From: an uncultured delta proteobacterium
GTDB taxonomy: Bacteria; Desulfobacterota; Binatia; Bin18
Direction of reading: 5' to 3'
DNA: 64,000 nucleotides
Assembly: GCA_963733195.1 (NCBI GenBank)
Contig: CAVTCR010000073.1
Coordinates: 32,001-96,000 of the forward strand
This document shows, one piece after another, positions 20,835 to 47,014 of this stretch (its first letter is position 1; every line of letters begins with the position of its first letter). The notes below the pieces were generated by a model that worked only from the letters and a program-made list of their open reading frames with translations, ran no database searches and was not told the DNA's origin. Position numbers and translations under genes: made by a program.

Positions 20835-20856
20835 AACATACTCCGTATGCGAGCGA

Positions 20857-22731: not shown

Positions 22732-22794
22732 CGCGTTTCAACGGCTCACGATATAGAGATCCCGTCTGAAATGTTTAGCGGGCTCAGGATTTTT

Positions 22795-22823
22795 GTAGAG
22801 ACGCCCCGGCGAGGCGTCTCTAC
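22795..22823. repeat. GTAG-type REP palindrome
   Basis: GTAGAGACGCC...GGCGTCTCTAC. Confidence 0.75.
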
Positions 22824-22844
22824 CCCATTCATAAACAGGCTGTT

Positions 22845-24625
22845 TTATTGTTTCTCCGCCGAAAAAATCCGCACCTCTACGCGGCGGTTTTTAGCGTGGT
22901 TCTCTGCATCGTTGCGGTCGATAGGCCGGTCCCAGCCCACACCATCAACCGCAAATTGGTTGGGATTTAACTTGAACTTGCGTACCAGCGCTTCTTTGAC
23001 GGCGTTGGCACGATTCATCGACAATTCTTTTACCACCGACGCAGGAACCTGGCCTTTCATTGAACTATCGGTATGGCCTTCGATAATGATCCGTGCCGCC
23101 CCGAATTGTCCGACTAATCGTCCGACTTCTTCCAGCACAAAATCCACCCGAGGGTCGTAGAGTTCTTCGACTTTCTTGCCATCTACTTCTTTGGTGACCT
23201 TCTTCAACAAATCCCAACTATTGGGATAGAAATGAATGATGATCGTGTTGGTCAGAATTTCATCTGATTCCCCACGAATATCACTCACCGTCGCTGGCGC
23301 GAGTTTGATCTGGTACTCATCTTTTTGTGCGGCATACTTCGGCTCTTTGCCCAGTTTATCGATAATTGAGAAATCCATCACCTGATCAAACGGTACAGGC
23401 TGGTGGGTGATCGCTCTAATACGTCGATACAGATAGTACGCCTGATTCCAAATCCTCTCAAAGTTGGTCGGGTTGTTTTGGTTCAGAAAGAACTGATGAT
23501 TCTCTCCCCAGTTGGTATTGTGCGCATCTCCGAGCATACTCAGCGCTTCGGTTGCTGGGATGTTGTACCCCTGCGCCATCAATTCCGCTAACCGCTTCTT
23601 TGCATCCTCGCTCTTCAAATCCTGCATGGCGTCGAAAATGCCGCGCACGAGCCCCTCAATAATGCCAGGATTATCTTTGGCGAAGTCTGCGCGTGCAAAC
23701 CATACATCGGCAATCAGTTTGTTGGCAGTAGAGGTGTTGACCAACATTCGGTTGCCACGAATCTTTTCCAGATTGTAAATATCGGGTGCCCACGAGACCA
23801 CGCCAGCCAGATCTTTCTGCGCGTTAAAGGCAGCCGCAGCCTGGAAAGCATCCTCGGTAAAGACCATCTGTACTTCGGCTGGCTGGACACCGCCCGAGAC
23901 ACAGCATGTTCAACGCGAAGTAATGTGAGGGTGAATTTTGTGCGAGCACTAACTTTTTCCCGCGGAGGTCGGCAACCGTTTTGATGTTTTCACGAACGAC
24001 AATCCCGTCACCGCCGCTAGACCAGTCGATTTGCTGATAAATGCGGGGCATGACACGACTGTCGCGTGGCTTACCAGTTGAATCGACAAAGCCTTCCATG
24101 AACAATGGGACCATATCGAGTGTGGCCCAACCGATGTGGACCTCACCAACGGCGTAGGCGTCTCGCATTGCCACCGGATTATCGATCAGGACGAGTTCGA
24201 CTTTGAAGTCTTTCCCATCGGGTGTTTTCCACACCTTGCCTGACTTAAAGCCGTTGTTGGCGAGAATGATTGGACCCCAACCGGCCCACACATTCAGGGC
24301 GAAGCGTACGGTGTTATCGGCGAGCGGCTTGTACCCGGCAGTCCCTTTTACTTCAGGCAAACGTTCGCTGGGTCGGAAACTATACTCTTTGACGGTGGTG
24401 ACGCTAGCCGAATCTGCAGCCTCTGGGCCTGCATCAGCAGGAGACGAAGGCATAGGAGTGACACCAGGAGTGACGGTTGGGGTTGTCAGTTCCTAGATCG
24501 GCAGGTTGATTTTCTTGCGTTCCTTTCGGCGCCAGTAGGTCACTCCGGTTCATAGCGAAATACACCAAGCCGCCGACGACCAATAAGAGGGCAATATAAA
24601 ACGGTGCTTTTGGTCCCCCACCCAT
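22845..24625 (-). CDS. Membrane-anchored NMT1/THI5-like substrate-binding protein fused to a C-terminal OmpA-like domain (frameshifts near 24485 and 23903)
   Basis: N-terminal TM; WAGWGP, TLD, DWSSGGDGIV, DLRGK; C-terminal IEGHTDS, LSMNRANAV, GVGWDRP, KNRRVEV. Confidence 0.85.
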
Positions 24626-24668
24626 ATGTGTTGTCTCCCGTCAGATATTTGGTTGTGTTTTCGTTATC

Positions 24669-24695
24669 GTAGGGGCGTATAGCTATACGCCCCTA
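24669..24695. repeat. GTAG-type REP palindrome
   Basis: GTAGGGGCGTATAGCTATACGCCCCTA. Confidence 0.75.
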
Positions 24696-24699
24696 TACG

Positions 24700-25248
24700 T
24701 TATCCATGGAAAGTAGTTTTCGGTCGTGCTTGCTCCATCGCATATAACATCTGCATGATGGCATACGCTGTCAACTCGCACAGCAGTTGTGTGACCTTTG
24801 CGTGCAATGCATCGTCGAGTTGCGGGTCGATCTCTTTCAGTAGTTTGACGACCAGTTTTTCTTGACTTTGTATCTCAGCTTCGTCAACCCGACCATCCGC
24901 CATTGTCGAAATAAACGATTCGAGCTGGCGTGCATGGTCATCAATCAGCGGGGTTTGCGTCAATTCGTCAACCCAGCTTGGGCGGTTAGGCGAGACGGTA
25001 GGTTTCTGGACGGGCTTTCTTGCCGGTACAGCTTTACGGGTGAGAACCTTTGGTTTTACGAGTTTACGTGTGGCGGGTTTCTTGACTGCTTTCTTCATGG
25101 CGACTTTTTTTGCGACAGATTTCTTCACCAGTTTTTTCACGACCTTCTTCTTTGCCGCGAGTTTTTTTGCTGCTGCTTTTTTCTTCGTCGCTGTGGCTTT
25201 TTTCACGGGACGGGGAGATGTTCGCGTTTTTACTTTTTTTGCTGCCAT
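24700..25248 (-). CDS. Protein with a Lys/Ala-rich histone-H1-like N-terminus and an acidic helical C-terminal domain
   Basis: KKATATKKKAAAKKLAAKKKVVKK tract, then TMADGRVDEAEI-containing domain; RBS AAGGAG. Confidence 0.75.
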   Translation of the reverse strand: MAAKKVKTRTSPRPVKKATATKKKAAAKKLAAKKKVVKKLVKKSVAKKVAMKKAVKKPATRKLVKPKVLTRKAVPARKPVQKPTVSPNRPSWVDELTQTPLIDDHARQLESFISTMADGRVDEAEIQSQEKLVVKLLKEIDPQLDDALHAKVTQLLCELTAYAIMQMLYAMEQARPKTTFHG

Positions 25249-25272
25249 GCCCTCTCCTTATCGTGGGACGTT

Positions 25273-27084
25273 TCACTGCTCGTTCAGTAACTGACGGATA
25301 GCGACGAAGCGTTCCTGTATCTGAGTGCGACCACCAGGTTGTGCGACCTTGGCACGGAGGTCAGGTGGAAGGAAATTGAGTTGGGTGCATTCGAGCACCG
25401 CCGCGAGTTCTTGTAATTCTTTCTCTAACCCTTGTGCCGACGGAATGAAATCGCGCACCGCTTCTTCGAGGTCTGCTTTTTGCAATTCGGTGCGCCCAGC
25501 CGCGAGGACGTGTCGTTTCGCACCCAAGACGATACTCTCAATATCTGCACCGCTGAGGTGGCGGTCGGCGCTGACCGCAGGAATGTCCTCTGGTGCGAGT
25601 TTGATTTTATTTTTGCGTGCCATGACTGCAAACATCTCACGGATTTCTGCATCATCATGCGGATAGAACATGGGAATATGCACTTCGGCTCGCCCTTGCC
25701 GCTTGATGTCAATCGGTAAGAGGTCAGGCCGAGAGGTGAGCAGCATCCAGACAATCTTGCCGCGATAACGGGTGTCGCCCATCTGGCTGGCGATCATGGA
25801 GAACACGCGACTCGAGGTGCCAGAATCGCCCTCGCTTTGGCGATTGCCAAGCGCAGCATCAGCTTCATCAATTAGGACAACCACTGGACCAAGAGAACGA
25901 AGGACGGTGAGGACTTGCTCGAGATTGCCTTCGGTTTCACCTACGTATTTCGAGCGGAAGTTGCGCAGTTTGACACAGGGAATACCAATCGACCCAGCGT
26001 AGCATTCTGCCAGGAACGACTTACCTGTACCCACCGGACCGCACAACAAATACCCCATCGGAGCGGCATCCAGTTGTCCGCTGGCAATCAGCGCTGCATC
26101 CTCGCGCAAGCGATCTTTGGCTGCTTGCTGGCCGACCACTAAGTCAAGCGTGTGAAAAGGTTCAATAAATTCCAACAGGTTCTGACATTGACGTTCGATT
26201 AGTGTTTTCTTGAGTTCGCCGAACTGCCGATCATCGACGCGACGGGCCGAATGTTTAGCTTGGGAGAGGAGCACATTCAAATTGACCAAGCTAAGACCGT
26301 TCGCTCGGTCTGCGAGTTGTTCGGGAGTGAAATCGGTCAGTTGGGAAAAGTTCTGCGTACGACCGATCCACCGTGAAAACTGCTCTCGTTCCACCTTTCC
26401 CGGCAGGGGCACTTCGATGGTTGCGACATGTGGATTCTGCACTAGTCGTGAGTTGATCTCTGAAAGCTTCTCGGCGATCAGGCAAAATGCAATGTTTACT
26501 CGTTTGATGTAGGGATTCTGCGCCCAGCCGAGAAAGCGGACTAAATTGGTTCCTGGTCCACGACCTAACAGACTGAGATCTCCAGCAGGAACTAAGTGTG
26601 AAGCATACTCAAACAGGAGACCGACACTTTTCCGCTGCGCGGTGTCTGGCTCTAAGAGGTTACGTTCAAGGAAGCGATCCAATAACAAGAGGACATTTTC
26701 AGGATCGCGCGGCCAGGAGCCAGCCTCACCAAGACGAGTGGTCAGTGTCTGAGCCATCATCTGTTGACGTTTGCTATTCCCTCCAGCAAACGGGCGTAAC
26801 CCGCGTCCGAGGTCATAGTGTACGACCAGATCCCAAGCACCAAACACTTGTGTGGCAAGAAATTCACTCAGCGTAGTGTAGGTATCTTCCTCTTCTGGGG
26901 TCGTTGCCGGACAGCGAACCAGATCATGAATATTGCCGTGCAGAACAAAGACACAGGTTGTGCCAGAAAAATACAGATCCGCGAGCTCACGTGCCCAACT
27001 TGGATACCATGAAGGAAGGGCGGGAACACCGGTCGGTCTCTGAGGCGACAACGGTTCTGGAGTAGTCGTGAAAGCCACACGCAA
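25273..27084 (-). CDS. Classical-clade AAA+ ATPase with a degenerate N-terminal module
   Basis: Walker A GPVGTGKS, pore loop SKYVGETE, Walker B VLIDEAD, SRH TSRPDLLP..KRQGR, SGADI. Confidence 0.9.
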   Translation of the reverse strand: MRVAFTTTPEPLSPQRPTGVPALPSWYPSWARELADLYFSGTTCVFVLHGNIHDLVRCPATTPEEEDTYTTLSEFLATQVFGAWDLVVHYDLGRGLRPFAGGNSKRQQMMAQTLTTRLGEAGSWPRDPENVLLLLDRFLERNLLEPDTAQRKSVGLLFEYASHLVPAGDLSLLGRGPGTNLVRFLGWAQNPYIKRVNIAFCLIAEKLSEINSRLVQNPHVATIEVPLPGKVEREQFSRWIGRTQNFSQLTDFTPEQLADRANGLSLVNLNVLLSQAKHSARRVDDRQFGELKKTLIERQCQNLLEFIEPFHTLDLVVGQQAAKDRLREDAALIASGQLDAAPMGYLLCGPVGTGKSFLAECYAGSIGIPCVKLRNFRSKYVGETEGNLEQVLTVLRSLGPVVVLIDEADAALGNRQSEGDSGTSSRVFSMIASQMGDTRYRGKIVWMLLTSRPDLLPIDIKRQGRAEVHIPMFYPHDDAEIREMFAVMARKNKIKLAPEDIPAVSADRHLSGADIESIVLGAKRHVLAAGRTELQKADLEEAVRDFIPSAQGLEKELQELAAVLECTQLNFLPPDLRAKVAQPGGRTQIQERFVAIRQLLNEQ

Positions 27085-27087
27085 CCC

Positions 27088-27843
27088 CTATGAACTCTGC
27101 TTGAGCGTTTCGGCCTGTGCTGGTCCGAGTTCTTTCTGGCTTGCCGCTACGCCAGCACTCTCCGGGGTGACCATGCCCATTTGCGTTTCAAATTCACGCA
27201 AGGCTTGCTCGGCTATGTTTCTCTCCACGGCTTCTTCGCGTTTGATATCGGCCACACCTTCGCTGGAGAGATCGGCGGCGACTCGCGACTTGGCACGGTT
27301 AAGGTTGATCTTGTCATGAATGACCTGTTCAATTTGCCCGAAATCGGTTGTCACATCGAAGTTGAACGTATTTGCCAACTCCGCCATCTCAGCTTCGGCA
27401 CGACTCATCTTCAACTCAGCATCATACTTGGTGATCTTGTCGCGGATGTCAGCGAGTTTTTTCCCGGCGTGTTTAATCTTGGCGAGATTATTATTATAGG
27501 CCTCCTCATGCAGCGTGAGATTATTTTCATTTTCTGCCAGTTGGTTTTTGGCTTTTTGCAAATCGAGAGCATGTTTGGCTGCTGTCTCACGATCCCCGGC
27601 CTGCAGATAGGCTTTGATCCGTGCTTCGAGTGAAGACACTTGAGTTTTATCGTTGGCGACTCGGCGCATAACTTGTTCGACTAACGCCCGGTATTGTGCC
27701 AACCCTTCACGCCCACCTTTGAGTTCTTCGACCGCCTGATCATACTCATACTGCATCTGTGCGATCGGGTCTGAGGCCCAAAAAAAGTTGGCGAGTTTAT
27801 TGAGTTGAGCTTGGAGCGTGACCCACAATTTTTCGAAGATCAT
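27088..27843 (-). CDS. PspA/IM30 (ESCRT-III superfamily) protein, divergent, with C-terminal extension
   Basis: Amphipathic N-helix, DP at start of helix 1, AGDRETA hairpin turn, long coiled coil, 251 aa. Confidence 0.75.
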   Translation of the reverse strand: MIFEKLWVTLQAQLNKLANFFWASDPIAQMQYEYDQAVEELKGGREGLAQYRALVEQVMRRVANDKTQVSSLEARIKAYLQAGDRETAAKHALDLQKAKNQLAENENNLTLHEEAYNNNLAKIKHAGKKLADIRDKITKYDAELKMSRAEAEMAELANTFNFDVTTDFGQIEQVIHDKINLNRAKSRVAADLSSEGVADIKREEAVERNIAEQALREFETQMGMVTPESAGVAASQKELGPAQAETLKQSS

Positions 27844-29714: not shown

Positions 29715-29739
29715 AACAAGGGGCTTAAAGCCCCTTGTT
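29715..29739. terminator. Perfect hairpin between convergent genes, probable bidirectional terminator
   Basis: AACAAGGGGCT-TAA-AGCCCCTTGTT followed by a T-run. Confidence 0.65.
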
Positions 29740-29774: not shown

Positions 29775-32700
29775 TCAGGCCCATGTCTCAAGATCCGACC
29801 GGAAAACGCGTACCCGCTGGAGAATTCCCTCGCGCTGGGTGTTGAACCACGTCATCGCACCAGCAAGGAGCGCGGCAAGTGTCAACAGGATCACTGCCTG
29901 GCTCAAGCGTTGTTCAGGGAACAGCATGATGAGTTGCCAGCCGATGTTCCACACGAGACTGGCGACTCCAGTATAGAGAAACGCGCGAACACGGATAGCA
30001 ATCCCAAGGAAGACACCAGCCAGGCTGAGAGCCAGCGCAACGATAAACACTCCCAATCCTTGGTGAAGGAAGACATCTGAGGTTGCACTGACATACAGTG
30101 TGGTTGTTGCTGCTAAGCGAATGGTATTCAACACCTGAGGCTTAAGTTCATGGCGGTGGAGATGTGCGAGGAGGAGGACACTCAGAGCAATTGGAGTCAC
30201 ATATAGTTGGACAATGTGGTACTGCTCCGCCCACATGGGAATCCATAAATATACTGCCGCATTGAAAGCCGCGAGCGCTAGATAGAGAGGTAGTGACCGC
30301 TCGGTTTCACGGTACGTGAGAAGGTACAGTGCACTCGCGGCAATGAAAGCAGTACCAGCATGAGTAGATGCAAGGTGAAATGGAATCGTTGCGAAGAGGA
30401 GGAACGGTATCACCATCACGACATGGAAAAGTGGCTCAAGTCGCACGAAATGATAAAGTGCGAACAAAGCGTAGGTAGCAATCATCAGTGCCGTTGTATC
30501 CCATGCTGATGCGGGAGCGAGACCGACGAGAATGAGGCGAATATAGAAACCCACTGCTCCGGCAAATAGTGCAGTGCCATAGGTCCACTGTGACGTTTGT
30601 GAGTGCCACGCTTGTCGTGCCCCCAAAGCAAGTAGCAACCCTGCTGCACCAAAGGCAGCGATCTTATCTGAGCCTTCACTGAGCCACTGTGGGGTGCTAC
30701 CGGCAGCAAGCGCAGTGAAGAGAGAGAATGCATGCAAGAGCCATTCAATAACAGCTAAACCAGCGGCGATCTGCCATGCCCACGACAGTAGTGGTGTGAG
30801 TATGCCCGATGAAGGGGGTAGGGTGTCTAGCGAATCTTCTGTCGGTTCCGCGTGGTTCTTTTGTAGTTTCCAGTCTGCCCACATAAAGAAACAGGCGATG
30901 ACGGCGAGTTGTAGCGAATACCACGGCCATAAGAGATGGATCTGCGCGAACGGTATCCACAGGAGGGGCCAATCGTGGAGCACCACCAAGATCATAGCAC
31001 CGGAGGCAAGTAGCCAACGCCGTTGCTGTCGCTGCCACCCGAGAACGGCCGCGGTGTCGATCAACACGAGTAGTGCAAGGAGTTGCTCATTGAACGGGGT
31101 CGGAAGCAGCACCAATGCAGTTATCGCAGCAACAAGACTGGGCTCGACCCATTGCGTCAGTATACTTCCGTAGAGGCTCAGTTCGTTCGCCTCCCCATTG
31201 GCGTTTCTCCCAGAGAAAATGCGAAGCACACACGGTGGCGCTCCATAAAGCGACAAAGAACGGGAAGTGGAAGACTGCGGAAACATACCCGAGCCAGGCA
31301 ACGAGGGCCGTGCAACTAAGTGCGACGAACAAGGCGTGACCTTCCCACGCCTGTTTATGTCGCCACCACAGGTGCAGGAACGAAAACGCCAACGTTCCGG
31401 TGAAAACAAGCAACTCAAGCCACTGTACGTCACTTGCAGGAAACAAACTGTCTACATTGTTGCTACAAAGGAGAAATACGAAGTGGCAGAGCCGTACAAG
31501 AAAAAACCCTGCGGGAAGGAGCAAGAACGGATGTGGGAGGTTATGCCTTTGCCAACTTAAGCGTGCAGTCAGTGCCTCTCCGTACAGGTGCCACCAGGGA
31601 ACGACGAGCAGCAGCAAGTTGAGCCAGACCAACTCACTGATGGGAGGACTAATTGGAAGCAGAAGTAGAGGCGAACTCGTCGCAAAGAGGGGTGGATCAG
31701 CCCACCATGCGGAGGTGAGAGTGGTGCCAACCCTGGTCAGAAGAAATACTGCAATCCATGAGAATCCGCTCCAATTGCTGTTGCGCAGCATCAGAAATAA
31801 ATACGCCGCGCTAGCGATGAGATAACCGGCATGTTGGAGAAGAGCGATGCGAGACAGGTGAAGCGTATCAAGAGACGAGAGCAAAAGGCAAAAACTGACA
31901 GTGAACAACCCAAACCACGGCCAGGTATCGGGCGCAATTGTCCACTGTGATTGCCGTGCATTCCACAGCGGCAGCGCGAAGTTTGCTGCTGCCCAGAGTG
32001 TGAACCCCCAGAGTACAGCAACTACGTTGACCTGATGCGTGAGTCCAAGCAGTGGGAGTATGCTGCTTAGGAAGGCAGTACCAAGCAGAGGAAGTGCGAA
32101 CCCACGGATCGTACTAGCTTCTGCTAGCCGCTGGACGAGTGGAAACAGACCGACCATAAAGACAAGGAACGTCAGTGACACACAGAGGTCTGCACGGAAT
32201 GGGGCACTAGCGAAGAACATCACTGCGCCACACAACGCCCAGAAATAGACTATCGCCGCGGCCCAGCTAATTGGCCGTACATACAATTGTCGTTCAGGTC
32301 GTTGACGAAGATGGTAAGCAAGCAGAGCAAGACCAGTGGCTACGAGCGATACAGTTAACCATTGATCTGCGGCGGCTGCTCCGCCAGGCCATAAGGTGAA
32401 CCTCGTCTTTGGGTGAACAAGTAACGCCTCTCCCCACAAAGTCGCAAGCACAGCGGCAAGTACCCCGGCGATCTGCAATGACGTGTGCCGCAGCGTAGAA
32501 CTTGCGGCAAAGAGCACTGTACCGGCAAAGAAGAGTGTCACTGTTGCGAGGATGTCGACGCTCTGTGGTGCATCAACCCATGCCAAGGCGAGTGCCTGAT
32601 TTATTGCGAACACTGCGAGCAGAAGCGCGGCATGACACAGCGGATCATGATAGAGCCAGCTTACATGTGGGATTGGTCCTGCGCTGAGGCGATCTTTTTG

Positions 32701-35700
32701 CACAGAGAGTTCCCACGCGAGCGTCCACCAGGTTAGCCCGATAACGCTTGCAAGAAGTCCTACGCCTTGATCACGGAACAGCGTGTAAATGCTCACATGG
32801 AGTGGGAGGACGATCCAACTGTAGCTTATGAGGGCAGTCAGAATAGCGACTCCTAATACCAGATAACTATGCACTTGACGCTGATACCGCCACCCGGCGA
32901 TGCTCAGAAATATCGCAACGCTAACTGGCGTACAGAAAAGTCCCACACTCGGAGTGAATATACCAACAAGTACTAAGGGAACCGCCACACACAACAGACT
33001 GCTGACTACGGTAGCCCAGTGTACGAACGTTTCAATCGTGCTTCGTTTGCCACCCAGATGGAAGAGGACAGCGAGGTGTGGAGTCCGGGAGTGTTTGAGC
33101 ACGACAATGCTCAGACTCCACATTAGGAATGAATAGAGCGCGCCAGCAAAGCCCAGAGTAGGGACACCAAAGGCACTAAGTCGAAACACTGAGAGCCAAG
33201 CACCAAGCCCTAACACGATTGCCATCGGGAATAACAATGGCAGTCGAAAGTAGCCGGCTCCTATCGCTGCTCCTAACGCCCCGAGGCCAGCCGAACACAT
33301 CCATCCCCAACCTACCGTGCCTTCGAGTAGCCGCATGGTGAGATGCCACAAGCCAATGACCCACAATACGACCATGGTCTGTTGCAACGGAGCACGAAGC
33401 ATCGTGGTATACGTAGCATTGCTAGAGACAGGGTATTGCCCCAGCAAAGTGAGCGGCACTCGCTCTTGTGCACGAATAGTGAGATATTCTTGATGTAAGG
33501 CAAGACTCTCCTCTGATTCGTGTTCCAGCCACCATAAAACGATCCACGCGCTCAGCGCTATGAGCATCTCGATCGTGCCAGCGCTAGGCTGAGGGAAATA
33601 GGTCAGCTTCAGGACGAGACCAGCGGTCCCCCATAAAGCCAGCACGCCATAAAAGAGGCCACGAATCCGTAGAGTCAGGCTCATGCCCAACAGGACGCTT
33701 CCTATTGCTGCCAACAGTAAGGGGAGAAGCCGATGGTAGGTAATATCAGGCAACGCTAGTGTTGCCGTCAGTGCCAGGGAGAAACCAAGGTTTACGAGTG
33801 TGCTGTTGAGCAGGACTTCAGCCTGACGAGCGTTGGTTGACGAGGCTCTATAGTGGAGTCGTGACCCTAGCGCAAGCCAGAGCCCAGCAAGAACAATAAT
33901 GCCGATAGCAGTCTGACCGACCCAGGTGGTGAGTGGCCACTGTGGCGCGTAGGCAACAGCGATACTTCCGAGCAGCATGACAGCATACAGCCATGAGCTT
34001 TGGCACAAGTCGGTGCATACCGCGTCGGCTGTTTGTTCACTCGCTGTTATTGGAGCAGAACGTAAACCATAGAAGACCAATCCCATTGTCGCCAAAGTAG
34101 TGGTCATCGCGCCTAGGCTCGGGTAGGCGTGTAACAAACTCCAAGCACAGACTGCGAATGTGGTTCCTAACCACACCCAATAACATGTCGAGGCTAATGT
34201 AGTCGCCCGATGTCGTTGGAGCCAGCGACTGGCAGCCAGGAGACCGACGAGACCTGGAAGACTCGCAAGAAAATGCCACTGTGGCAGCAAATGTTGAAGA
34301 ACCAACGTCTGATACAGCCAGCCGACACAGATGAGCAAAAGTGCCAGCGGAATGACAGTCACATACTGCCAAACGACAACGCTGTATACTGCGATGGCTA
34401 AGCATAACGTGAGTAGTCGCGCACCCGATGCCTCAACACTAAGAAGTAAGGCCAGTACCGAGAGTCCATAAAGAAAAAAGCTTACGCGCGAGAGAAAGGC
34501 GTACTGCTTCGTCCAACGCTTCAAATGCGCGTCGACATAGAAGAGGAGCCCGCACACCGCCATGAGGAAGGGACCATAATAACCAGCAGGTAAGGTCACC
34601 GGATTGGCGTGGCCCCAGGTAAGATGTACGAAAGAAACGGCGGCCGCGTAGACAAACGTCCCCACGGCGTAAAAGGCGACCTTACGGCGTTCGGCGAGAA
34701 TCGACTGAAGCCATTCGTGGGTAAATTGTCGTAGGCCATAGGCAAGAACTCCAAGTAAAGCACAGTGAGTGATAGCTAAAAAAATCCAGGATGGGTATCT
34801 GGCGAGTAGCGGGACCGTAATTTGCGCCGTTGCAAGGGCGAGGAAGAGCTGAGGATGTCGACCTTGGAGGGATCGGTCCATGACGCCGGAGACCAACATA
34901 GCGACATAGTAAAAGCCCAGCACCTCCACTGCGGTAAGAAATAGACCAATGGCTATCCAAGGAGTGGCTTGAGCGGTGGTGATCAGTCGAACTGCAGAGG
35001 CGATATTCAAGGGAATGAGGAGGAGACCAAGGGCAAGCAAAACGTGTCCTGAAGTGAGCTCGGGCCGGATGCGACATAAGCGATATCCTAGCCATAGAAG
35101 GAATCCGCTATAGGCGAGGAGAACCCCGGAAACAGCCAGTGCATTCGTCTGTCCACTGGTTGAAGAGATCAAGAACGTTGAGCCAGCAACGAAGCATAAT
35201 CCGCAAATAAACCACAGAATATTCTGGGCCAGGAACGGAACAAGCAGTGCTGGCCAGCGAGAGACGGTCTGGAGCGTACGCTCTAAGGCACTTGGGGCGG
35301 CTGGCACCCAAGCTTCATCAGGAGAAACAGAGCGGGAGACAGAGTTGGAGATAGAGATGGAAGAGGGTAAGTCTTCCTGCGACGGAGGTGAAACACTTGC
35401 TGTTAGTACTGGGGAGACCACCGGAGCTTGTTTGAGTAATACGGCTGACTCGCTTGGCAGTGGAGATAGAGTGGCTGTTGGTGGAACCTGAGTGGGTGAA
35501 GTCACCGCTTCGAGAGCAACGGATTGCTGAATTTCTTCTGTAAGGTGACTATAAGCTCGTGGCTGCAACGGAAGCGCGAGTTGCTGCGGTATTTCGCCAG
35601 AACGCCTCGTAGTGAGCTCCATCTCTCGCCAGGGGGATGGCCCAGGAGCAACGATCTGCTGGGAGACCAGGAGCTTCCAAGCTGCCTCGCGCCCCTCGCG

Positions 35701-36075
35701 CCAGCGTTGACTGTCAGGTGTGATATGGAGGTCAACGAGGGAATTGTCACAAAGTGAATTGATTTCTTTGATTATTCCCTTGAAGAATACAGAATCGATT
35801 TTCCCTGCAGCACATTGACGCGCAAGTTCATTACGCAAAATCAACAAGTCAATCAGCGTGCGGTTTGCGACGTTGATCGAGGACGATTCACGAGACTCAG
35901 GAGGTTGGAGCGAGGACGCCTGAGGTGCTGGTGTCAGGGAAGTTTGGGCTCGGCGGCGGCGATACAGCCAGACTCCTCCACACAACAAGAGAAAGAAGAG
36001 AAACTGGTGGTGAGCAAAAAACCTGAGGAGAGGGGAGAGAACCCACCAGGCGATGAGGGTAATAAGAAAATCCAT
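29775..36075 (-). CDS. Giant (~2100 aa) multi-pass membrane protein, DUF2157/DUF2339-like (one frameshift near 31166)
   Basis: ORFs 31087-36123 and 29775-31433 join at EPLR/SILTQW; dozens of hydrophobic helices; FLAQNILWF and C-terminal IRVRAFLYTG...LETWA. Confidence 0.75.
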
Positions 36076-36144
36076 GTGTACTCTTTTGTGTAAAATCGGA
36101 AGTTGTCCAGTCGGATATGTCACTCAATGCCGAACACTCACTTT

Positions 36145-36213
36145 TGTCATTCTGAGGCCGAAGGCCGAAGAATCTCTTTTTTAGAGAGATCCTTCGCTCC
36201 ACTCAGGATGACA
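36145..36213. repeat. Palindromic REP-like element
   Basis: TGTCATTCTGAG...CGAAGAATCTC / GAGATCCTTCG...CTCAGGATGACA. Confidence 0.8.
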
Positions 36214-36291
36214 TGCCTTGTGAGGTTCAGTCCGAAAGCGCTCTGATGTGGTCCGTCGCCCCCAGTCACACAAAGTTAAGATTACTTCAAC

Positions 36292-36975
36292 TTACGCTGT
36301 CTGATCGCCAACGACTTTCTTCTTCAACGCTGCCAGCTCGTTATCTAATTCCCACTCCACTTCCATAGCTAAGACCTCTTTTTCGACACGAGAAGTGTGG
36401 CTGTTGACTTCATCCATCGCCTCGGCTCGGGCTTCCATTTCCGCCACTCGGTCTTCCATACGTGTAAAATTGGCATGCGCATCGAGCCCAGCTTTGAAAT
36501 GCGACAGCGTGTCACCCATATACTCCCGCGCTTGTGCCGCACGCTGCCGGGCAATCAGCATGCTGCGTTTACGTTTGGCTTCTTCAAGTTTCGCCTCTAG
36601 CGCATGTAACTGTTTTTTCAGATGTTCACTAGTGGCTTTTGCCGATTCCCACGCCGGTTCTAGTGACTGAATGATGCTGTCATACTCTTTCTTTCGCAGC
36701 AGTGCCGCTCGCGCGAGATCTTCTCTGTTAGCATGGAGTGCATCCTCCGCCTTTTTCATCCATTCAACGGATTGGCGACGATGGAGATCGAGGTCCTTCT
36801 GCAGTTGTTTCTCGCTGGCGATGGCATCGATTACGCCTTCCTTGGCCCGAGCGATGTTCTCTTCCATTTCGCGAATCATCTGTTTGATCATCCGTTCCGG
36901 ATCTTCGACACGATCAATCAAATCATTGATATTGGCGGTGATAATGTCGTTAATACGCTTGAAGAGGTTTGACAT
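36292..36975 (-). CDS. pspA: Phage shock protein A / IM30 family protein
   Basis: MSNLFKRINDIITANINDLIDRVEDPERMIKQMIREM, REDLARAAL, FTRMEDRV, ELAALK. Confidence 0.92.
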   Translation of the reverse strand: MSNLFKRINDIITANINDLIDRVEDPERMIKQMIREMEENIARAKEGVIDAIASEKQLQKDLDLHRRQSVEWMKKAEDALHANREDLARAALLRKKEYDSIIQSLEPAWESAKATSEHLKKQLHALEAKLEEAKRKRSMLIARQRAAQAREYMGDTLSHFKAGLDAHANFTRMEDRVAEMEARAEAMDEVNSHTSRVEKEVLAMEVEWELDNELAALKKKVVGDQTA

Positions 36976-37045
36976 AAGGAGGTCCTTTCTGGCTCGTTGA
37001 AGCAGGAGCCTGTGTTGAAAAATATCGGTACTTCGAGCTCAATGA

Positions 37046-40000
37046 TTAGGATTGCAAGGCGGTATCTGAGGTGGCCAATGTCAGTGCGGCTACTCGTGCT
37101 GCGCGAAGATCGATCTTGCCGGTTCCCAGGACAGGCAGCGTGTCAACGGCAAAGATATGTTCGCGCTTAGGAACCCACAACTTTGGGAGGTCTGTTTGAT
37201 TTAGATGGGTCCAAAGGACGTCGGCAGTAAACTTAGGGTGAGCGTAGAGGACAACCAATCGTTCACCTTTCTGTTCGTCCGGGATAGCCGTTACTACGCA
37301 TGACGTATCGCCCAGGATTTGGTGAACGGCTTCTTCAATGCGGAGGTGCGGCACCATCTCTCCACCGATTTTGCTGAAACGGGAAAGGCGGTCGGTGAGA
37401 TAGATGAACCCATCGTCGTCAATCTTGGCAATATCACCGGTGACATACCAACCGTCACGGATCACCTCGCGAGTTTTCTCTGGTTGGCCGAGATAGCCGA
37501 GCATTCGATTTGGGCCTTTGACGAGGAGGAGTCCTTCTTGCCCACAGGGAAGTGGAGCACCTGTTTCACGATCAACTACTTTAGCGACTACACCTGGGAT
37601 CGGATGGCCGACACTTCCTGGCTTGAGTCCGATCTGGCGCTGAGTTCCCTCTTTGATATCAGGCACATTGACAGCAATAGCCGGTGCCATTTCTGTGCAA
37701 CCATACCCTTCGAGGAGGTCGATGCCATACTTCTCGCGAAACTCTTGGGCGAGTGCTGGTCGTAGCTTCTCGGCACCTGCAATCGCGTAGCGTAATGAAG
37801 CGAATTCCTCGGCAGAGCATTTGCGTAGATAGGCAGGCGTAGAAAGTGGGCGTACTGATCAAGACGGTCGCACGATACGTACGGATCATCTCCCCCAGTG
37901 TTTTGGCATCAAGCGGGTTCGGATGATAAACGACCTGCCATCCGGCGACGAGCGGGAGCCACAGGGTGCCGGTGAAGCCGAATGAGTGGAAGAATGGGAG
38001 TGCACCCATGACGCAGTCTTGCGAGGTCGTGGTGAAAATCTGCTGCATTGCCTCGACGTTGGAGAGGATGTTGTGATGCGATAACATCACTCCCTTTGGG
38101 GTACCGGTGCTGCCGCTGGAGAAGATGATCGTAGCGAGGGAGTTTGGATTTTGTTGTGGACGATTCCACAGCCGCTGCAGCAGACGAGTCGGGGTGAGAA
38201 AAGCGACAACCGCAGTCCACACTCGCTGTGCTGAAGAAATATCCTTCAACAAATCTTCGACAAACACCATGCCTTTGTGTTCGTCGATCTTCGCTTTGGC
38301 AAGGAACGTCCGTGACGTCAGAATAGTGTGAAGGTTACTTTGTTCGATAGCGAGGTCCATCGCCTCACGCCCCGTGGTGAAGTTCAGATTAACTGGCACC
38401 TTTCCTGCGAGCAGCGTAGCGATATTGGCGAGTGCACCACCTACCGAGGCCGGGAGAATGAGGCCGATGTTTTCTTCTTGTGGTCGATGGCTTTTCAACC
38501 AACGCGCCAGCAAAAGGCTGCCGATCAGTGTTTTGCCATAGGTCAGTTTCCTACCGGTTGAATCAGCCATACAGAAGGAGAACCAACGACGTTTGGCGGT
38601 GTCAATGAAACGTAGGTGAAGCAGATCACGCTTGGTACGACGATGATCAACTGCTGCGCTGCCCAGATCCGCAATAGTATAACGTACGTGTTCAGCCGTA
38701 GCAGTAGAGGGGAGGGGAGAACCGAAGGAGACCGTGACCGGGTAGGGAAACCGTTTCGGCCATTTCCAGAAGAAGCGGCCATTGTCGAAACTAAAGATAC
38801 TGCCCCATAATCGGTCCAGGTGCACGGGAATGATCGGGACATTGTCGAGTCCTTGCATGATTCTTTCGAACCCACGCTTGAGGGGAAGAAGATTCCCAGT
38901 GCGACTGATCGCGCCTTCAGCGAAAATGCAGACAACATGGCCTTGGCGGAGTTGCTCACGTGCACGTTCGAGCGACTCCAACACGACCTTACGGTTACCG
39001 CTTTCCACCGGAATGGCATTCATGAGTCGCATGAACCAGTGAAGCGCCTTCTGTTCGTAGATTGGTTTGTAGACAAGGAAACGAATGAAGCGTTGAACGC
39101 AACCGCCAACCAGCAGGCCGTCGACGAACGACATGTGATTACATATCAACAAGGCAGGGCCACGAAGCGGAACATTTTCTTGGCCAACAATGCGGATACG
39201 ATAGATCGTGTGGGTCAGCAACCATAAGCTAAAACGTACAAAGAATTCCGGCACAAGCGTAAAAATATAGACTGCGACCAGTGCATTGAAGATCGCTGCG
39301 ACGAGAAGAAGTTGCGGAATCGTCAGTCCTGTTTTGAGAAGGACGACCGCGAGGACCGCCGAGAAGACCATGAACAGAGCGTTGATGATGTTGTTGCCAG
39401 CGATGATGCGCGAACGGTGCATTGCGTCACTGCGAAACTGAATGAGTGCATACAATGGAACAATGAAGAAACCGCCGAAGAGACCAAGGAGAAATAAGTC
39501 GGCTGCGATACGCCAGCCTGTGAAGGTCTGAAGGAACGCAACAGCGCCGATGACGCTCTCAGCCTTGATGGGCGGAGTGGCGAAGAAGAGATCAACCCCG
39601 AATAACGTTAAGCCAATTGCACCAAACGGTACGAGTCCCATTTCTACTTTGTGGCCCGAGAGTCGCTCACACAACAACGACCCGATACCAATACCGAGCG
39701 AGAAGCAGGTCAAAAAAAGAGTCACAATCTGTTCGTTACCACCCAAGACCTCTTTGCTGTAGTTCGGGAACTGGGACAAGAAAAGGGAACCGTAACACCA
39801 GAACCATGAGATACCTAAGATGGAGAGAAATACCGTTCGATCCTGGCGAGTCAGTTGAAGAATGCGCCACGTTTCACTGGCAACATTCCAGTTGATGGTT
39901 AGGGTTGGATCTGGGGCGGGCGAGTGTGGGATCTGACGACTCATGAGCCAGCCGCTGCATGCGACGCCAATCGTCGTCAGCGACACGAGCATGGTGCCCC

Positions 40001-40523
40001 ACGGTTGCACGCTAATGAGAATGCCACCGAGGATTGTGCCCAGTAGAATCGCCACGAAGGTGCCCATTTCTACTAAGCCGTTGCCCCCGACGAGTTCTTC
40101 AGAGCGCAGATGTTGGGGAAGAATGGCGTACTTCACTGGGCCAAAGAGTGTCGATTGCACACCACCGAGGAACAGAGAGACTAGAAGGATAGTGAGACTC
40201 TGCAAATAAAATCCTACCGCGCCAAGGAGCATCAGCACGATCTCTAACGCGACCGTGTATTGGATGAGCTTGGCCTTCTCGTACTTGTCGGCGATTTGTC
40301 CACAGGTGGCAGAGAACAGGAAAAAGGGCAGGATAAATAAGCCTGCGCTGAGGTTGATGAGTGTGTCGGAATCGATCGTGGTCAGAGCCGCGCCCTGAAA
40401 TGCGAACAGGATAACAAGCGCGTTTTTGTATACGTTATCGTTAAATGCCCCGAGGAATTGCGTCCAGAAAAACGGTGCGAACCGTCGTTGTTGCAGTAAG
40501 GAGAATTGGTTTCCGTTACTCAT
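37046..40523 (-). CDS. aas: LplT-like MFS + acyltransferase + acyl-ACP synthetase fusion (frameshift near 37835)
   Basis: TQFLGAFNDN, FGPVKY, NHMSFVD (HX4D), FAEG, FSSGSTGTPKG, EGYGCTE, TGD, SRFSKIGGEMV. Confidence 0.9.
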
Positions 40524-40563
40524 TGTTCCTTTGCCCTCCTAAGAGCGACGAATCACTCCTAGC

Positions 40564-40578
40564 GCAACCCCCATGCCA
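40564..40578 (-). promoter_or_regulatory. Sigma54 -24/-12 promoter of the aas-pspA operon
   Basis: Minus strand TGGCAT-GGGGG-TTGC, full consensus spacing, 40 nt upstream of the aas ATG. Confidence 0.7.
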
Positions 40579-40854
40579 AGCGTACTCCTGTTCATATTAC
40601 CTTGGCAAATCGGAAGCTTGCGCCAGAATCACACGTAAATGATACTTCTTGTGTGGTTTGCTTTAGACATTTTTTGCCTGTCTCTGTACATTAAATGTCA
40701 ATAACGGAAACAGCGATATGGATTTTATGAACGACGATGATAGTCACAGCGCGAATACATTGACAACGTCTGCTCGTCTCTCCATGATCCACAGCGCGCA
40801 GAGTCGTCTTCTCGGATAGATGGTCCGCTGTTTCGCACGCAAGGAGTAAAAAAC

Positions 40855-43293
40855 ATGTACGGACTCGAAGGAGTGAAAGTCCTTGAGCTGGGCACGATGG
40901 TGTCAGCTGCATACGCGACCAAACTGATGGCCGATCTTGGCGCGGATGTGATCAAAGTCGAAGAACCGAACGGTGATCCGGCGCGTTTGCGTGGCCCGTT
41001 TCCTGGCGGAGTGGTCGATCCGGAGAAAAGTGGACTCTTTCTCTATCTCAACACCAACAAACGCGGAGTGACCCTTGATCTGAACCGCCAACATGAAGAA
41101 CTCCTCCGCCTGGTCGCGTGGGCTGATCTTCTGGTTCACAACTATTCTCCTAGCGATATGGCGACGCGAGGCATCGCCTACGATACTTTTTGTGAGATCA
41201 ACTCACGACTGGTGATGTGCTCGATCACACCCTTTGGGTTGACAGGGCCGCATAAGGACTACAAAGCGCACGACCTGACACTTTCGCATGCTGGTGGTTG
41301 GGCGTGGTTGAGTCCGGGCGCTCTAGAACGCGCGGATCTTCCGCCGCTTAAAGCATTTGGCCAGCAATGTGACTTTCAAGGAGGGCTCGCTGCCGCCACC
41401 GCTGCTCTTGCCGCGTACACCCGGGCATTGGACACAGGGACTGGGGAGCATATTGATCTCTCCGTTCAAGCCTTCATTGCCTCATTCCTTGAGCAAGCCT
41501 TCGTCTACTATAGCTACCTCGGTCGTATCGCCTCACGCTTAGGGCAACGGTACATGTATCCGTGGGGCATGTATGAGTGCCAGGATGGTCTCATCTTTAT
41601 TGTGATCCCAGAAGAGGACCAGTGGGAACGCCTCGTGGAATTCATGGGCAACCCGGAGTGGACCAGGTGGGAGATTTTTGCCGATCGGACCGGCCGCATC
41701 AAGAATCAGGATGCGCTCAAAATTTACGTAGAAGAATGGACCCGACAATGGAAGGTCGAGGATCTATTTCATGCCGGTCAGACGCGGCGGCTCTGTTTTG
41801 CCCCGGTGTTGACGATGGCAGGACTGGCGCGACAAGAACAGTTGCGCGCCCGTAATTTCTTTGTCGAGGTATTCCATCCCCGTGCTGGAAAATTGGTACA
41901 TTTGGGCCCACCCTACCAGTTGCAGGACCCGTGGTGGCAGATGCGCCGACCCGCGCCCTTGCTCGGAGAACACAATGAAGAAGTCAGGGCAAGTCTCGGG
42001 CAAGTCGAAACAAGTCGCGGGCGAGTCAAGGTAGAGCCTGCTGAGGGACTTCAGACGCTGGACGCCAGACGCCGGACTTCTCCGTTTCCGCTAGACGGCA
42101 TTCGCGTCGCAGATTTTTCCTGGGTCTGGGCAGGGCCGTATTGCGCGATGCATCTGGCCTACCTCGGCGCTGAGGTCATTAAAATCGAATCGCGGGCGCA
42201 TCTCGATCTGATGCGACGGTTGCCGATTGCTCCGCGAGGTATAAAGCCTGGGATTGATAGTTCTGGCCCTTTCAACCAGTGGAACCAGGGCAAGAAGAGC
42301 ATGCAGCTGAATCTGAGTAAAGCTGAAGGCATAGCGCTGGCCAAAGAACTTATTCAGCAGTGTGATGTGGTCATTGAAAACTTTGCCACCGGTGTGATGG
42401 ACACCTTGGGGCTAGGCTACGAGGAACTCAAGAAGCTTAAGCCTGATCTGATTATGGTCTCGATCTCTGGCTACGGGCATACCGGTCCACTCAAAGACTA
42501 CATGGGGTACGGTCCAGCGATACCGCCACTAACCGGGTTGTCGGCGTTAACGGGCTATCAGGGCGACTCACCACGAGAAATTGGTGTGTCCATCGGCGAT
42601 CCCAATGCCGGTATATCTGCCGCAGGAGCCGTCTGCGCGGCCCTTGCGGCTCGTAAGCGGACAGGACGAGGGCAATACATCGACGTGTCGCTCTGGAGTG
42701 CAGCGGCTGTTTTGGCGGCAGAAGGCTGGATGGAATATGCCATGAACGGCGGCGAACCGCCGCGTCAGGGAAACCGCGATACCGTGATGGCGCCACATAA
42801 TTGTTTTCGTTGTCTCGGGGAGGATACGTGGGTGACGATTGCCTGCGGCACCGAAGAAGAATGGCAGGCGCTGTGTCGCGCGATGGGCTACAGGCACTTG
42901 ATAGAGGACCCACGTTTCCGCACTGCACGTGATCGCAAAGCGCACGAAGACGAATTGGAACAGTTGATCACGGTCTGGACAGAACAGCATGACCGCTGGG
43001 AGATCACACGTATATTACAGGCTGTTGGCGTTGCCGCGTTTCCCTCGATGAGTAGCAAGGATCTCGCGGAAGATGTGCAATTGAACGCACGCGGTTTTTT
43101 TGCGCGACTCCCGCATCCGGAAGTTGGGGCACAGACGCACACAGGGATTCCGTGGATACTGACCAACGCACCCAATGGCGTAAGATCCGCTGCTCCCTTG
43201 CTCGGGCAACATACGGACGAAGTGCTAAGCAATATATTGGGCTATACAAATGAGGACATCGCACAGCTGAGGGAACAGCAGGTGTTGTATTAG
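40855..43293 (+). CDS. Tandem two-domain family III CoA transferase (CaiB/BaiF)
   Basis: Two modules (LGADVIKVE..NTNKR; LGAEVIKIE..NQGKKS), each ending APLLG(E/Q)H. Confidence 0.92.
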   Translation: MYGLEGVKVLELGTMVSAAYATKLMADLGADVIKVEEPNGDPARLRGPFPGGVVDPEKSGLFLYLNTNKRGVTLDLNRQHEELLRLVAWADLLVHNYSPSDMATRGIAYDTFCEINSRLVMCSITPFGLTGPHKDYKAHDLTLSHAGGWAWLSPGALERADLPPLKAFGQQCDFQGGLAAATAALAAYTRALDTGTGEHIDLSVQAFIASFLEQAFVYYSYLGRIASRLGQRYMYPWGMYECQDGLIFIVIPEEDQWERLVEFMGNPEWTRWEIFADRTGRIKNQDALKIYVEEWTRQWKVEDLFHAGQTRRLCFAPVLTMAGLARQEQLRARNFFVEVFHPRAGKLVHLGPPYQLQDPWWQMRRPAPLLGEHNEEVRASLGQVETSRGRVKVEPAEGLQTLDARRRTSPFPLDGIRVADFSWVWAGPYCAMHLAYLGAEVIKIESRAHLDLMRRLPIAPRGIKPGIDSSGPFNQWNQGKKSMQLNLSKAEGIALAKELIQQCDVVIENFATGVMDTLGLGYEELKKLKPDLIMVSISGYGHTGPLKDYMGYGPAIPPLTGLSALTGYQGDSPREIGVSIGDPNAGISAAGAVCAALAARKRTGRGQYIDVSLWSAAAVLAAEGWMEYAMNGGEPPRQGNRDTVMAPHNCFRCLGEDTWVTIACGTEEEWQALCRAMGYRHLIEDPRFRTARDRKAHEDELEQLITVWTEQHDRWEITRILQAVGVAAFPSMSSKDLAEDVQLNARGFFARLPHPEVGAQTHTGIPWILTNAPNGVRSAAPLLGQHTDEVLSNILGYTNEDIAQLREQQVLY

Positions 43294-44329: not shown

Positions 44330-45880
44330 ATGGCCTTCGTGAACGGTAATGAACAGGCGCTTCTGCAAGCGGTGTCCAAACTCGGGTACTGCAACCCGTT
44401 TCTCCCTGAGCGAATTAGCTACGAACGTGAAGTATTGGGTGCAGATTTTGTCGAAGGAGAAGCGGTGTGGAGTCTACGCGTGGATGATCCGAGTGCGCCG
44501 CGCGCGAACAATACCGCTATTGCTGAACGTGTTGCTGGGCTAGTGGAGAAGCTTCGTGAGCGTCTGAGTAGCGGCACCCACGCAATAGCGAAGGACCTCG
44601 AGTTGTATGAAGACGCGGTGCTGTTTCTCCTCTTTCATCGTACTCAAGTGCATTTCTATTCGCTCATCATGCAGAGCCAGCAGCAGCGGCCAGTCACGAA
44701 GCGCTTGGGATTCTACAATGAGTTCCTCCACGACTGGGAACACTTCTTTACTATTCCGACCGTAACCTTGCCGGTGGTGTACGATGCGCCCCATTCCTTT
44801 GCCTGTTTCTTCCAGGTACGACGTGCATTTCACCATATCATCGAATCGATCATAGGAAGTTCGCTGGCTGCTGCCCGTTTACGCGCTGCTGTGTGGCAGT
44901 CGATTTTCACCCACGATATGCGGCGATATCGACGCACGCTTTTCGATCGCATGGGTGATTTCACCACACTTATTCGCGGACCTTCGGGAACAGGGAAGGA
45001 GCTTGTGGCACGAGCGATTGGGTTATCACGGTACGTGCCCTTCGATCCCAAGACCCTGTCCTTTACTGAGGATTACCACGGTTCGTTCTATGCGATTAAT
45101 CTTTCTGCGCTGCCCGCGACGCTGATCGAGTCCGAACTGTTTGGCCATCGTCGTGGGGCGTTCACCGGTGCGTTACAGGATCGTAAAGGCTGGCTTGAGG
45201 TGTGTCCTGCTCTAGGGACAGTTTTTCTCGATGAGATTGGCGACCTGGAAACCACGATTCAGGTCAAATTGCTACGGGTGCTGCAAACCCGCATTTTCCA
45301 GCCTTTAGGCGATACGAACGACCGTCATTTTCGCGGGAAGCTGATTGCAGCGACCAATCGTGATCTTCTGACAGCAATTCAAGCGCGACATTTTCGTGAG
45401 GATTTCTACTATCGTCTTTGCTCTGATTTGGTGACGACACCGTCTTTGCATGAACAATTACGAGAATCACCCGCAGTGTTACGCGAATTACTGCTCTTTA
45501 TTTCCCGTCGTATCGCCGGAGATGAGGGTGACGTGTTAGCGCAGGAGGTTGAGGCGTGGATCGTTCAACATCTTGGGCGAGAGTATCCGTGGCCTGGCAA
45601 TATTCGCGAACTCGAACAATGCGCGCGTAACGTTTTGGTGCGCAAAGAGTATCTGCCAGCACCAGTGCAGAAACAGACGCCGACAAATGAACTTGTCGAC
45701 GCCTTCAATGCTGGGGCGCTGACGGCAGACGAGGTCATCCGTCGGTACAGTACGATTGTATATGCTCAGACTGGGAGTTATGAAGAGACGGCTCGCCGTT
45801 TGCATCTCGATCGGCGTACAGTGAAGAGTAAGATTGACTTCGAACAACTCGAACAGCTTCGAACCGCGAAAAAGTCGTGA
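44330..45880 (+). CDS. Sigma54-dependent enhancer-binding protein with an uncharacterised N-terminal domain
   Basis: GPSGTGKE, ESELFGH, GAFTGA, FLDEIG, WPGNIRELE, C-terminal HTH; no receiver domain evident. Confidence 0.9.
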   Translation: MAFVNGNEQALLQAVSKLGYCNPFLPERISYEREVLGADFVEGEAVWSLRVDDPSAPRANNTAIAERVAGLVEKLRERLSSGTHAIAKDLELYEDAVLFLLFHRTQVHFYSLIMQSQQQRPVTKRLGFYNEFLHDWEHFFTIPTVTLPVVYDAPHSFACFFQVRRAFHHIIESIIGSSLAAARLRAAVWQSIFTHDMRRYRRTLFDRMGDFTTLIRGPSGTGKELVARAIGLSRYVPFDPKTLSFTEDYHGSFYAINLSALPATLIESELFGHRRGAFTGALQDRKGWLEVCPALGTVFLDEIGDLETTIQVKLLRVLQTRIFQPLGDTNDRHFRGKLIAATNRDLLTAIQARHFREDFYYRLCSDLVTTPSLHEQLRESPAVLRELLLFISRRIAGDEGDVLAQEVEAWIVQHLGREYPWPGNIRELEQCARNVLVRKEYLPAPVQKQTPTNELVDAFNAGALTADEVIRRYSTIVYAQTGSYEETARRLHLDRRTVKSKIDFEQLEQLRTAKKS

Positions 45881-47008: not shown

Positions 47009-47014
47009 GTCATT

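Follow-up and report, generated by a model that had tools for sequence, protein, structure and literature searches.

The known membrane anchors of PspA-family proteins (PspB and PspC, LiaI, PspM) are small, and each is limited to particular lineages. In a 64-kb stretch of DNA from an uncultured delta proteobacterium (contig CAVTCR010000073.1), hereafter called the window, a pspA gene is found between a fused gene of the aas type, putatively involved in phospholipid repair, and a gene for a polytopic membrane protein of approximately 2,100 amino acids, hereafter called the giant protein, with all features of the putative operon on the minus strand. The locus is read here as a three-gene envelope-maintenance operon which was built around an older module of pspA and the giant gene, a reading to which a probability of about 0.5 is given. 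The putative Psp-system architecture with an uncharacterised giant partner family is new, and its predicted link to lipid repair is lineage-specific.

Surveys of PspA neighbourhoods describe PspBC, LiaI-LiaF-TM, Toastrack, PspMN, AAA+ ATPases, CesT/Tir, band-7, TPM and other contexts (PMC11237479, PMC9239133). Neither a very large polytopic partner nor aas is mentioned in the available text of these two surveys; the supplement of PMC11237479 may list such cases. No description of pspA paired with the giant gene, or of an operon combining PspA and LplT, was found in the literature searched.

PspB consists of about 74 and PspC of about 119 amino acids, compared with approximately 2,100 for the membrane partner in the window. 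In E. coli the psp genes depend on sigma-54 and PspF (PMC9239133). The window resembles the E. coli PspF-PspABCDE system in having a PspA-family effector behind a sigma-54 type promoter, followed by membrane protein coding sequence, and an activator gene which is nearby and divergent. It differs in that the promoter precedes aas rather than pspA, no PspB or PspC was found in the window, the PspA is below the TIGR02977 cut-off and the activator has an N-terminal domain of 200 amino acids. PspF-type activators consist of AAA+ and HTH parts only. The activator was considered as a PspF equivalog and rejected, both for this extra domain and for its TIGR02974 score of 129.4 bits, which is below the cut-off (443.55).

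In Bacillus subtilis liaI precedes liaH. LiaI is a small transmembrane protein (PMC11237479). The LiaI-LiaH system (with LiaF) is similar to the window in that a PspA homologue is encoded beside a membrane anchor, and DUF2157, which is the membrane domain of LiaF, was returned as the nearest named lead for the giant protein by the ESM Atlas, whereas gene order and partner size are different and no DUF2157 match was found in 18 members of the giant-protein family. The functions of LplT and Aas have been described, and fused LplT-Aas open reading frames (ORFs) occur in some bacteria and are uncharacterised (PMC11416262). E. coli LplT-Aas and the window share an MFS flippase, a PlsC-type acyltransferase and an acyl-acyl carrier protein (ACP) synthetase, and the window gene matches the fused form NF006386; in the window, however, these parts form one fused ORF, linked to pspA, behind a sigma-54 type element and broken in frame as assembled. 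The described context of PspA, a two-domain AAA+ ATPase and ABC/OmpA genes (PMC11237479) is also present in the window, at 19935-27843, with another, divergent PspA paralogue and no giant protein. Finally, the pairing of an ESCRT-III-superfamily protein with a partner predicted to carry a three-helix bundle may resemble that of ESCRT-III with MIT-domain partners (Vps4 and others); it differs in that no MIT domain was among the Foldseek matches listed for the bundle, all of which had E values of at least 0.89.

The pair of pspA and the giant gene

The pspA gene (36292..36975, minus strand) encodes a PspA/IM30 protein of 227 amino acids belonging to the ESCRT-III superfamily, which matches PF04012 (E 5.8e-48; 163.8 bits, cut-off 33.9) over residues 3-219. 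In an alignment with solved Vipp1/PspA chains (E 1.5e-33), residues 3-222 are matched to residues 2-218, corresponding to the full length. The protein is below the proteobacterial equivalog cut-offs, with 156.9 against 242.95 bits for TIGR02977 and 121.6 against 336 for NF007974. The giant gene (29775..36075, minus strand) corresponds to approximately 2,098 codons from the ATG at 36075, with a GTG at 36123 also in an open frame, and is split in the assembly into ORFs 31087-36123 and 29775-31433. Used as a query, the giant ORF identified 83 homologues, the full-length ones mostly of 1,880-2,170 amino acids, which have no Pfam domain and no informative name; one of 2,100 amino acids (P0002) is 80% identical to the window protein. 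Neither the giant ORFs of the window nor 18 + 18 relatives gave a Pfam or NCBIfam match, even at E values up to 10.

A single scan of 185,579 species genomes with the giant protein as the query resulted in 80 loci, in which the upstream genes were called by tblastn with the window proteins and by ORF tracing. Six loci were cut at the 5' end, leaving 74 in which the gene upstream of the giant gene could be assessed. In 66 of these, pspA was directly 5' of the giant gene on the same strand, with a median gap of 61 nucleotides (nt) and a gap of at most 150 nt in 55 of 65. The assessable loci are from Gammaproteobacteria, Desulfobacterota and Binatia-like genomes, with carriers in Competibacteraceae, Chromatiaceae, Methylococcales, Halieaceae, Desulfobacterales, Syntrophobacteraceae and Electrothrix as well as the Binatia-like genomes, and cultured carriers include Thiocystis (T. 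violascens, T. minor), Desulfonema magnum and Desulforhabdus sp. TSK. The genes on both flanks of the pair vary by lineage, and no conserved third gene was found among the 58 upstream and 34 downstream neighbour genes scanned. The same main groups were recovered in the trees of PspA and of the conserved membrane module of the giant protein, and pairwise identities of the two proteins were correlated over 24 loci (r = 0.96), which fits co-inheritance, for which shared descent alone would also be sufficient. Judged by gene order, pspA and the giant gene together form the unit that is conserved, and this context supports a functional pair of the two proteins.

PspB and PspC were searched for in the 64-kb window. 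No match to their Pfam families was found among 54 ORFs of at least 150 amino acids, nor among 16 small ORFs, mostly outside genes, between 24 and 46.5 kb, and no ORF of at least 45 amino acids is present on the operon strand in the spacers on either side of pspA. The absence of pspB and pspC stated in the initial annotation holds for the ORFs and spacers scanned, which is a partial test confined to the window. The same annotation had the giant protein replacing PspBC. A role as membrane partner of PspA gained strong support from the position of pspA in the 66 loci, while replacement of PspBC is still conjecture; none of 18 members of the giant-protein family has similarity to PspB, PspC or LiaI-LiaF-TM/DUF2157 at E values up to 10.

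A second PspA-family gene of the window, at 27088-27843 on the minus strand, is very divergent (PF04012 E 4.4e-14), and no similarity of its product to the operon PspA was detected with BLASTP. It belongs to the minus-strand region mentioned above, where it is followed by genes for a 603-amino acid AAA ATPase (25273-27084), three unassigned ORFs (one of them with an OmpA domain), an ABC permease and an ABC ATPase.

The neighbours of the pair at other loci include genes related to lipids. Among the 58 upstream genes there were the aas fusion (three loci), a divergent Aas-type gene (L014), Hydrolase_4 genes (L018, L037) and, in seven loci, divergent thiolase or FadB genes; this recurrence is a weak hint. 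The L014 gene, from Ectothiorhodospiraceae, is a two-domain form (Acyltransferase and AMP-binding, 723 amino acids; 1582-3753, minus strand) behind a TetR gene (3773-4462, minus strand) and divergent from pspA and the giant gene, being a second, independent case of proximity between aas and pspA. In three Methylococcales loci (L071, 50-3781; L078 and L079, 5297-9055) a MASE1-PAS-GGDEF-EAL gene for 1,243-1,252 amino acids ends 29-30 nt 5' of pspA on the same strand, and a link of cyclic di-GMP to the pair is possible. Of the loci with the giant gene, L011 carries the label of a cyanobacterium and L076 that of a Caldilineaceae bacterium; as their identities of 46-48% resemble those of Competibacteraceae loci, binning errors are possible.

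The aas fusion, its promoter and a candidate activator

The aas fusion (37046..40523, minus strand) was identified with Pfam and NCBIfam as LplT (MFS), a PlsC-type acyltransferase and an acyl-ACP synthetase, with the domains MFS_1, Acyltransferase, AMP-binding and AMP-binding_C in this order. In the assembly it is divided over two frames, ORFs 37659-40523 and 37046-37690, which together cover profile positions 5-888 and 935-1145 of NF006386 (acyl-[ACP]--phospholipid O-acyltransferase) and, with the frame broken, score separately 925.5 and 287.4 bits (cut-off 1221). Exactly 70 nt separate the aas stop codon from the start of pspA. The order of aas, pspA and the giant gene was found, in addition to the window, in three of the 80 loci (L001, L002 and L004), where aas is intact (1159-1169 amino acids) and its end is 55-100 nt away from pspA. 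In one of the two trees mentioned above, which did not include L001, the window clusters with L002 and L004 (support 95/86). As far as these loci indicate, the aas fusion and its putative promoter are confined to one clade consisting of the window and three related genomes.

A sigma-54 type -24/-12 element, TGGCAT-N5-TTGC, is located at 40564..40578 on the minus strand (TGGCATGGGGGTTGC, read from 40578 to 40564), 41 nt 5' of the aas ATG at 40523 and with AGGAGG in between. The sigma-54 consensus is TGGCAC-N5-TTGC. The element has its GG at 40577-76 and its GC at 40565-64, giving GG-N10-GC. The pattern TGGCAY-N5-TTGC has one exact match in the window compared with 0.43 expected from shuffles, and at least one exact match was obtained in 36 of 100 shuffles; with these counts the motif alone is not significant window-wide. 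The weight of the promoter call lies in the placement before AGGAGG and the ATG and in the conservation in the related loci, of which L001 has an identical element and L004 CGGCAT-N5-TTGC, so that the canonical spacing is retained in two of the three relatives. In an alignment of the promoters of the window, L001, L002 and L004 (A6) the block GATTTGCCAA (40602..40611, minus strand), approximately 25 nt 5' of the -24 element, is invariant in all four, and is possibly a contact for IHF or an activator. A block further upstream, ATTGACATTTAATGTACA (40685..40702, minus strand; approximately 110-125 nt 5' of the -24 element), has close likeness in L001 and L004 and weaker likeness in L002, and is a candidate activator-binding site. 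No direct or inverted repeats were found in the promoter region.

An enhancer-binding protein of sigma-54 promoters, with 516 amino acids, is encoded 3.8 kb from the operon (44330..45880, plus strand; Sigma54_activat, E 7.5e-46). Its AAA+ domain begins at residue 210 and is preceded by an N-terminal domain of approximately 200 amino acids, the first 200 residues having no Pfam match at E values up to 1 and no match to PDB sequences; this domain is regarded as a putative sensor. Orthologues with 72-74% identity are found upstream of aas in L002, where the gene is adjacent and divergent, and in L004. This protein is a candidate activator of the operon. Sigma-54 is reportedly argued in one study (PMC3162934) to control the bacterial exterior, which would fit the envelope theme.

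The initial annotation had described the promoter and the gene order, with pspA 70 nt after the aas fusion and a polytopic protein of approximately 2,100 amino acids following, as they are found here; that both aas and the giant gene are broken in frame in the assembly had escaped it. Conservation of the neighbourhood in L001, L002 and L004 answers the concern that the linkage might be unique to this genome. The proposal of the initial annotation that lipid repair is co-regulated with PspA is not supported as stated, since such co-regulation would be confined to one clade of the window and three of the 80 loci, with a sigma-54 motif before pspA in two of 65 others.

Two neighbouring regions were recorded besides the operon. 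Divergent from aas, at 40855-43293 on the plus strand, is a gene for a protein of 812 amino acids consisting of two tandem CoA-transferase family III domains, which is kept beside the aas operon in L001 (84% identity). Just 3' of the activator gene, at 46058-48133 on the plus strand, a gene for a DUF898 membrane protein is followed after 7 nt by an M48 peptidase gene.

Sigma-54 motifs with 10 of 11 consensus positions were also observed in Desulfobacterales, before pspA in L035 (9086) and L065 (8442), and before the giant gene, with the same word TGGCACATCCTTTGCT, in L065 (9802) and L073 (9781). These motifs suggest a parallel sigma-54 control of pspA and the giant gene in Desulfobacterales.

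Predicted architecture of the giant protein

The best-conserved part of the giant protein is a membrane module of residues 270-720 (33916..35268, minus strand), beginning with PFLxQNxxWF and having a mean column identity of 56% in an alignment of 31 sequences (A3). A profile of this module found 237 representatives among 1.84 billion, all of the giant-protein family, and no match to PDB sequences at E values up to 1. Polar residues are conserved in this first membrane module, including Q and N of PFLxQN and His, Asp, Lys and Arg positions (alignments A2 and A3), suggesting that the protein is more than a passive anchor. Many representatives of the family have only 800-920 amino acids and end soon after the conserved module (within the set P0086-P0163, P0209-P0221), and in forms of approximately 2,300 amino acids the module match starts from residue 4, without the N-terminal domain; no Pfam domain was found in any of the 18 representatives scanned.

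For the N-terminal 300 residues AlphaFold2, with alignment A4 as input, predicts a hydrophobic helix before RRRR, a three-helix bundle and, after a disordered linker rich in proline, the beginning of the membrane core. The bundle, predicted to be cytoplasmic, comprises residues 63-138 (35662..35889, minus strand) with a predicted local distance difference test score (pLDDT) of 92-98, and has conserved positions at L77, L80, L84, L113, W125, A132, L135 and L136. Residues 270-1400, modelled with 43 sequences, have a mean pLDDT of 84.4 and consist of approximately 38 long helices connected by short loops. The first ORF has 36 hydropathy peaks in the core and six outside it, and a further 14 come from the second ORF, which with the N-terminal helix gives approximately 55-60. 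To our knowledge, few polypeptides from bacteria would have as many helices.

With Foldseek the membrane core matched only soluble alpha-solenoids of the PDB, at TM-scores of at most 0.19, and a Piezo-like or transporter-like fold was rejected, as no such chain was among the 50 matches listed. The nearest named lead in the ESM Atlas for the 1662-amino acid giant ORF was DUF2157 (score 0.83, 22% of cluster members), below the level at which the tool regards a match as exceeding a lead, and the N-terminal domain gave no usable match there. When eight segments of 220 residues were compared with hhalign, three pairs aligned over approximately 100 residues each at 67-86% probability; for membrane profiles these internal repeats are too weak to count as anything other than a lead.

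Alternative explanations and proposed role

A number of observations weigh against a three-gene operon around a module of pspA and the giant gene. In the window, five matches to the promoter 16-mer with one mismatch allowed were found compared with 4.6 expected, and in L002 the -24 and -12 words are the same but one base is added in the spacer, giving 11 nt from GG to GC, an extra base which sigma-54 promoters do not normally tolerate. The giant gene is without an adjacent pspA in eight of the 74 loci, having instead upstream genes for type II secretion, hydrogenase/TauE, a transposase, an amidohydrolase and others, so that the giant protein can exist without a neighbouring pspA. A sigma-54 motif is upstream of pspA in only two of the 65 other loci (L035, L065) and aas is present in three of 80, because of which neither aas nor sigma-54 is part of the conserved module, and sigma-54 control was rejected as a property of that module. 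The overall helix arrangement of the giant protein is uncertain, with a predicted TM-score (pTM) of 0.54 for residues 270-1400, its topology is not settled, as K and R in alternate loops number 22 and 17, and among PDB folds Foldseek returned nothing below E 0.89 for the three-helix bundle. The two frameshifts, if real, would leave aas inactive and the giant protein truncated, and the spacer between pspA and the giant gene has features that would fit a divided transcript.

The frameshifts are the starting point of one alternative, that the locus is decaying, with aas and the giant gene as pseudogenes and pspA as the only functional gene. Compared with L001, the aas gene has an additional base near 37835, outside any homopolymer; compared with P0002, the giant gene has one near 31163, and a truncated giant form of 1662 amino acids is present in a public protein set. 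Against this, the frame of a third gene, encoding an MFS transporter (52892-54185, plus strand), is also broken by a single additional base, near 53790 in an AAAA/TTT/CCC run, and as all three breaks in 64 kb are single-base insertions, a systematic assembly error looks likely. The frames are open and conserved on both sides of each break, with 75-83% identity to P0002 around that of the giant gene, and the giant gene is likewise interrupted in 16 of 72 complete loci of draft genomes, which fits error-prone assembly of a 6-kb gene. The extra bases are probably assembly errors rather than decay, and pseudogenes are regarded as unlikely here, though far from negligibly so. More than one transcription unit, with the sigma-54 promoter serving aas and perhaps pspA, and the giant gene alone or together with pspA having its own promoter, is rather unlikely. 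It is favoured by 63 of the 65 other loci having neither a sigma-54 motif before pspA nor aas, so that in these loci a separate promoter must serve the pair, by motifs both before pspA and before the giant gene in L065 and before the giant gene alone in L073, and by the length of the spacer between pspA and the giant gene, 216 nt in the window and 132-324 nt in the aas clade compared with the overall median of 61 nt. That spacer is not conserved in sequence in L001, L002 and L004 and contains a stable RNA hairpin without a U tract (36155..36205, minus strand; -69.8 kcal/mol and z -2.67 for 226 nt folded), and an internal promoter or processing site is possible in it. On the other side, neither spacer was reported to contain a terminator-like or sigma-70-like site on the strand of the operon, no sigma-54 motif scoring at least 9 is present in them, and the gap between aas and pspA is short both in the window and in its three relatives. 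A GC-rich hairpin at 29719..29736, between the giant stop codon and a convergent methyl-accepting chemotaxis protein gene, is terminator-like on the plus strand and has a weak T run on the minus strand, and is likely to be the end of the operon transcript.

The other alternatives concern the relation between PspA and the giant protein. That the two genes are neighbours by chance, or through shared ancestry of a few close genomes, with no functional tie, is highly improbable: many of the 80 loci are from Competibacteraceae, which inflates the count, but the pair is kept, with a short gap, in at least four deep lineages in which both flanks change. PspA responds to mislocalised secretins in enterobacteria, and the giant protein could similarly be a transporter, channel or lipid-handling machine that endangers the membrane, with a dedicated PspA guarding it and sealing leaks. 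The conserved polar residues of the first membrane module, the eight loci in which the giant gene stands without pspA and the recurrence of lipid-related genes beside the pair are in line with such a guard, whereas no likeness to a transporter, channel or enzyme family was found with Pfam, NCBIfam, PDB sequences, Foldseek or the ESM Atlas, and genes of fatty-acid metabolism are frequent neighbours whatever the genome; we consider this explanation improbable.

If the locus is a three-gene envelope-maintenance operon, the giant protein would be the membrane-embedded partner of its PspA clade, the pair having been co-inherited over several phyla. It may mark or sense a section of the inner membrane, where PspA would be recruited or released, with contact most likely occurring through the cytoplasmic N-terminal three-helix bundle, which the flexible proline-rich linker would tether to the 55-60 or so hydrophobic helices. 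The fusion of LplT, acyltransferase and acyl-ACP synthetase in front would be a lineage addition by which lysophospholipids are flipped inward and re-acylated, and aas, pspA and the giant gene would all be read from one sigma-54 promoter, which the nearby enhancer-binding protein probably switches on. The genes present with their order and spacing, the promoter element and its conservation, the linkage of pspA to the giant gene and the predicted architecture are shown by the data; co-transcription, the identity of the activator, binding between PspA and the giant protein and the inducing signal are what we infer from this arrangement. In a more specific model, put forward very tentatively and thought improbable as it stands, the giant protein would serve a bacterial ESCRT-III protein as a new kind of adaptor in the membrane. 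Its hydrophobic helices, predicted to be arranged as an extended series of helical hairpins, would form a ribbon or ring in the inner membrane that reports on or fences a bilayer patch, with the bundle capturing PspA and nucleating its polymer and the repeats serving as anchoring units.

How PspA and Vipp1 are placed at the right membrane site is a question outside enterobacteria and Bacillus, and the apparent link, across several phyla, between a PspA clade and a single membrane protein of very large size offers a concrete and testable partner. The giant protein, with approximately 2,100 residues and some 55-60 predicted membrane helices, is an unusual object in itself. The presence in one clade of a putative lysophospholipid re-acylation enzyme under what may be a shared sigma-54 promoter hints at a possible coupling between lipid repair and the action of PspA.

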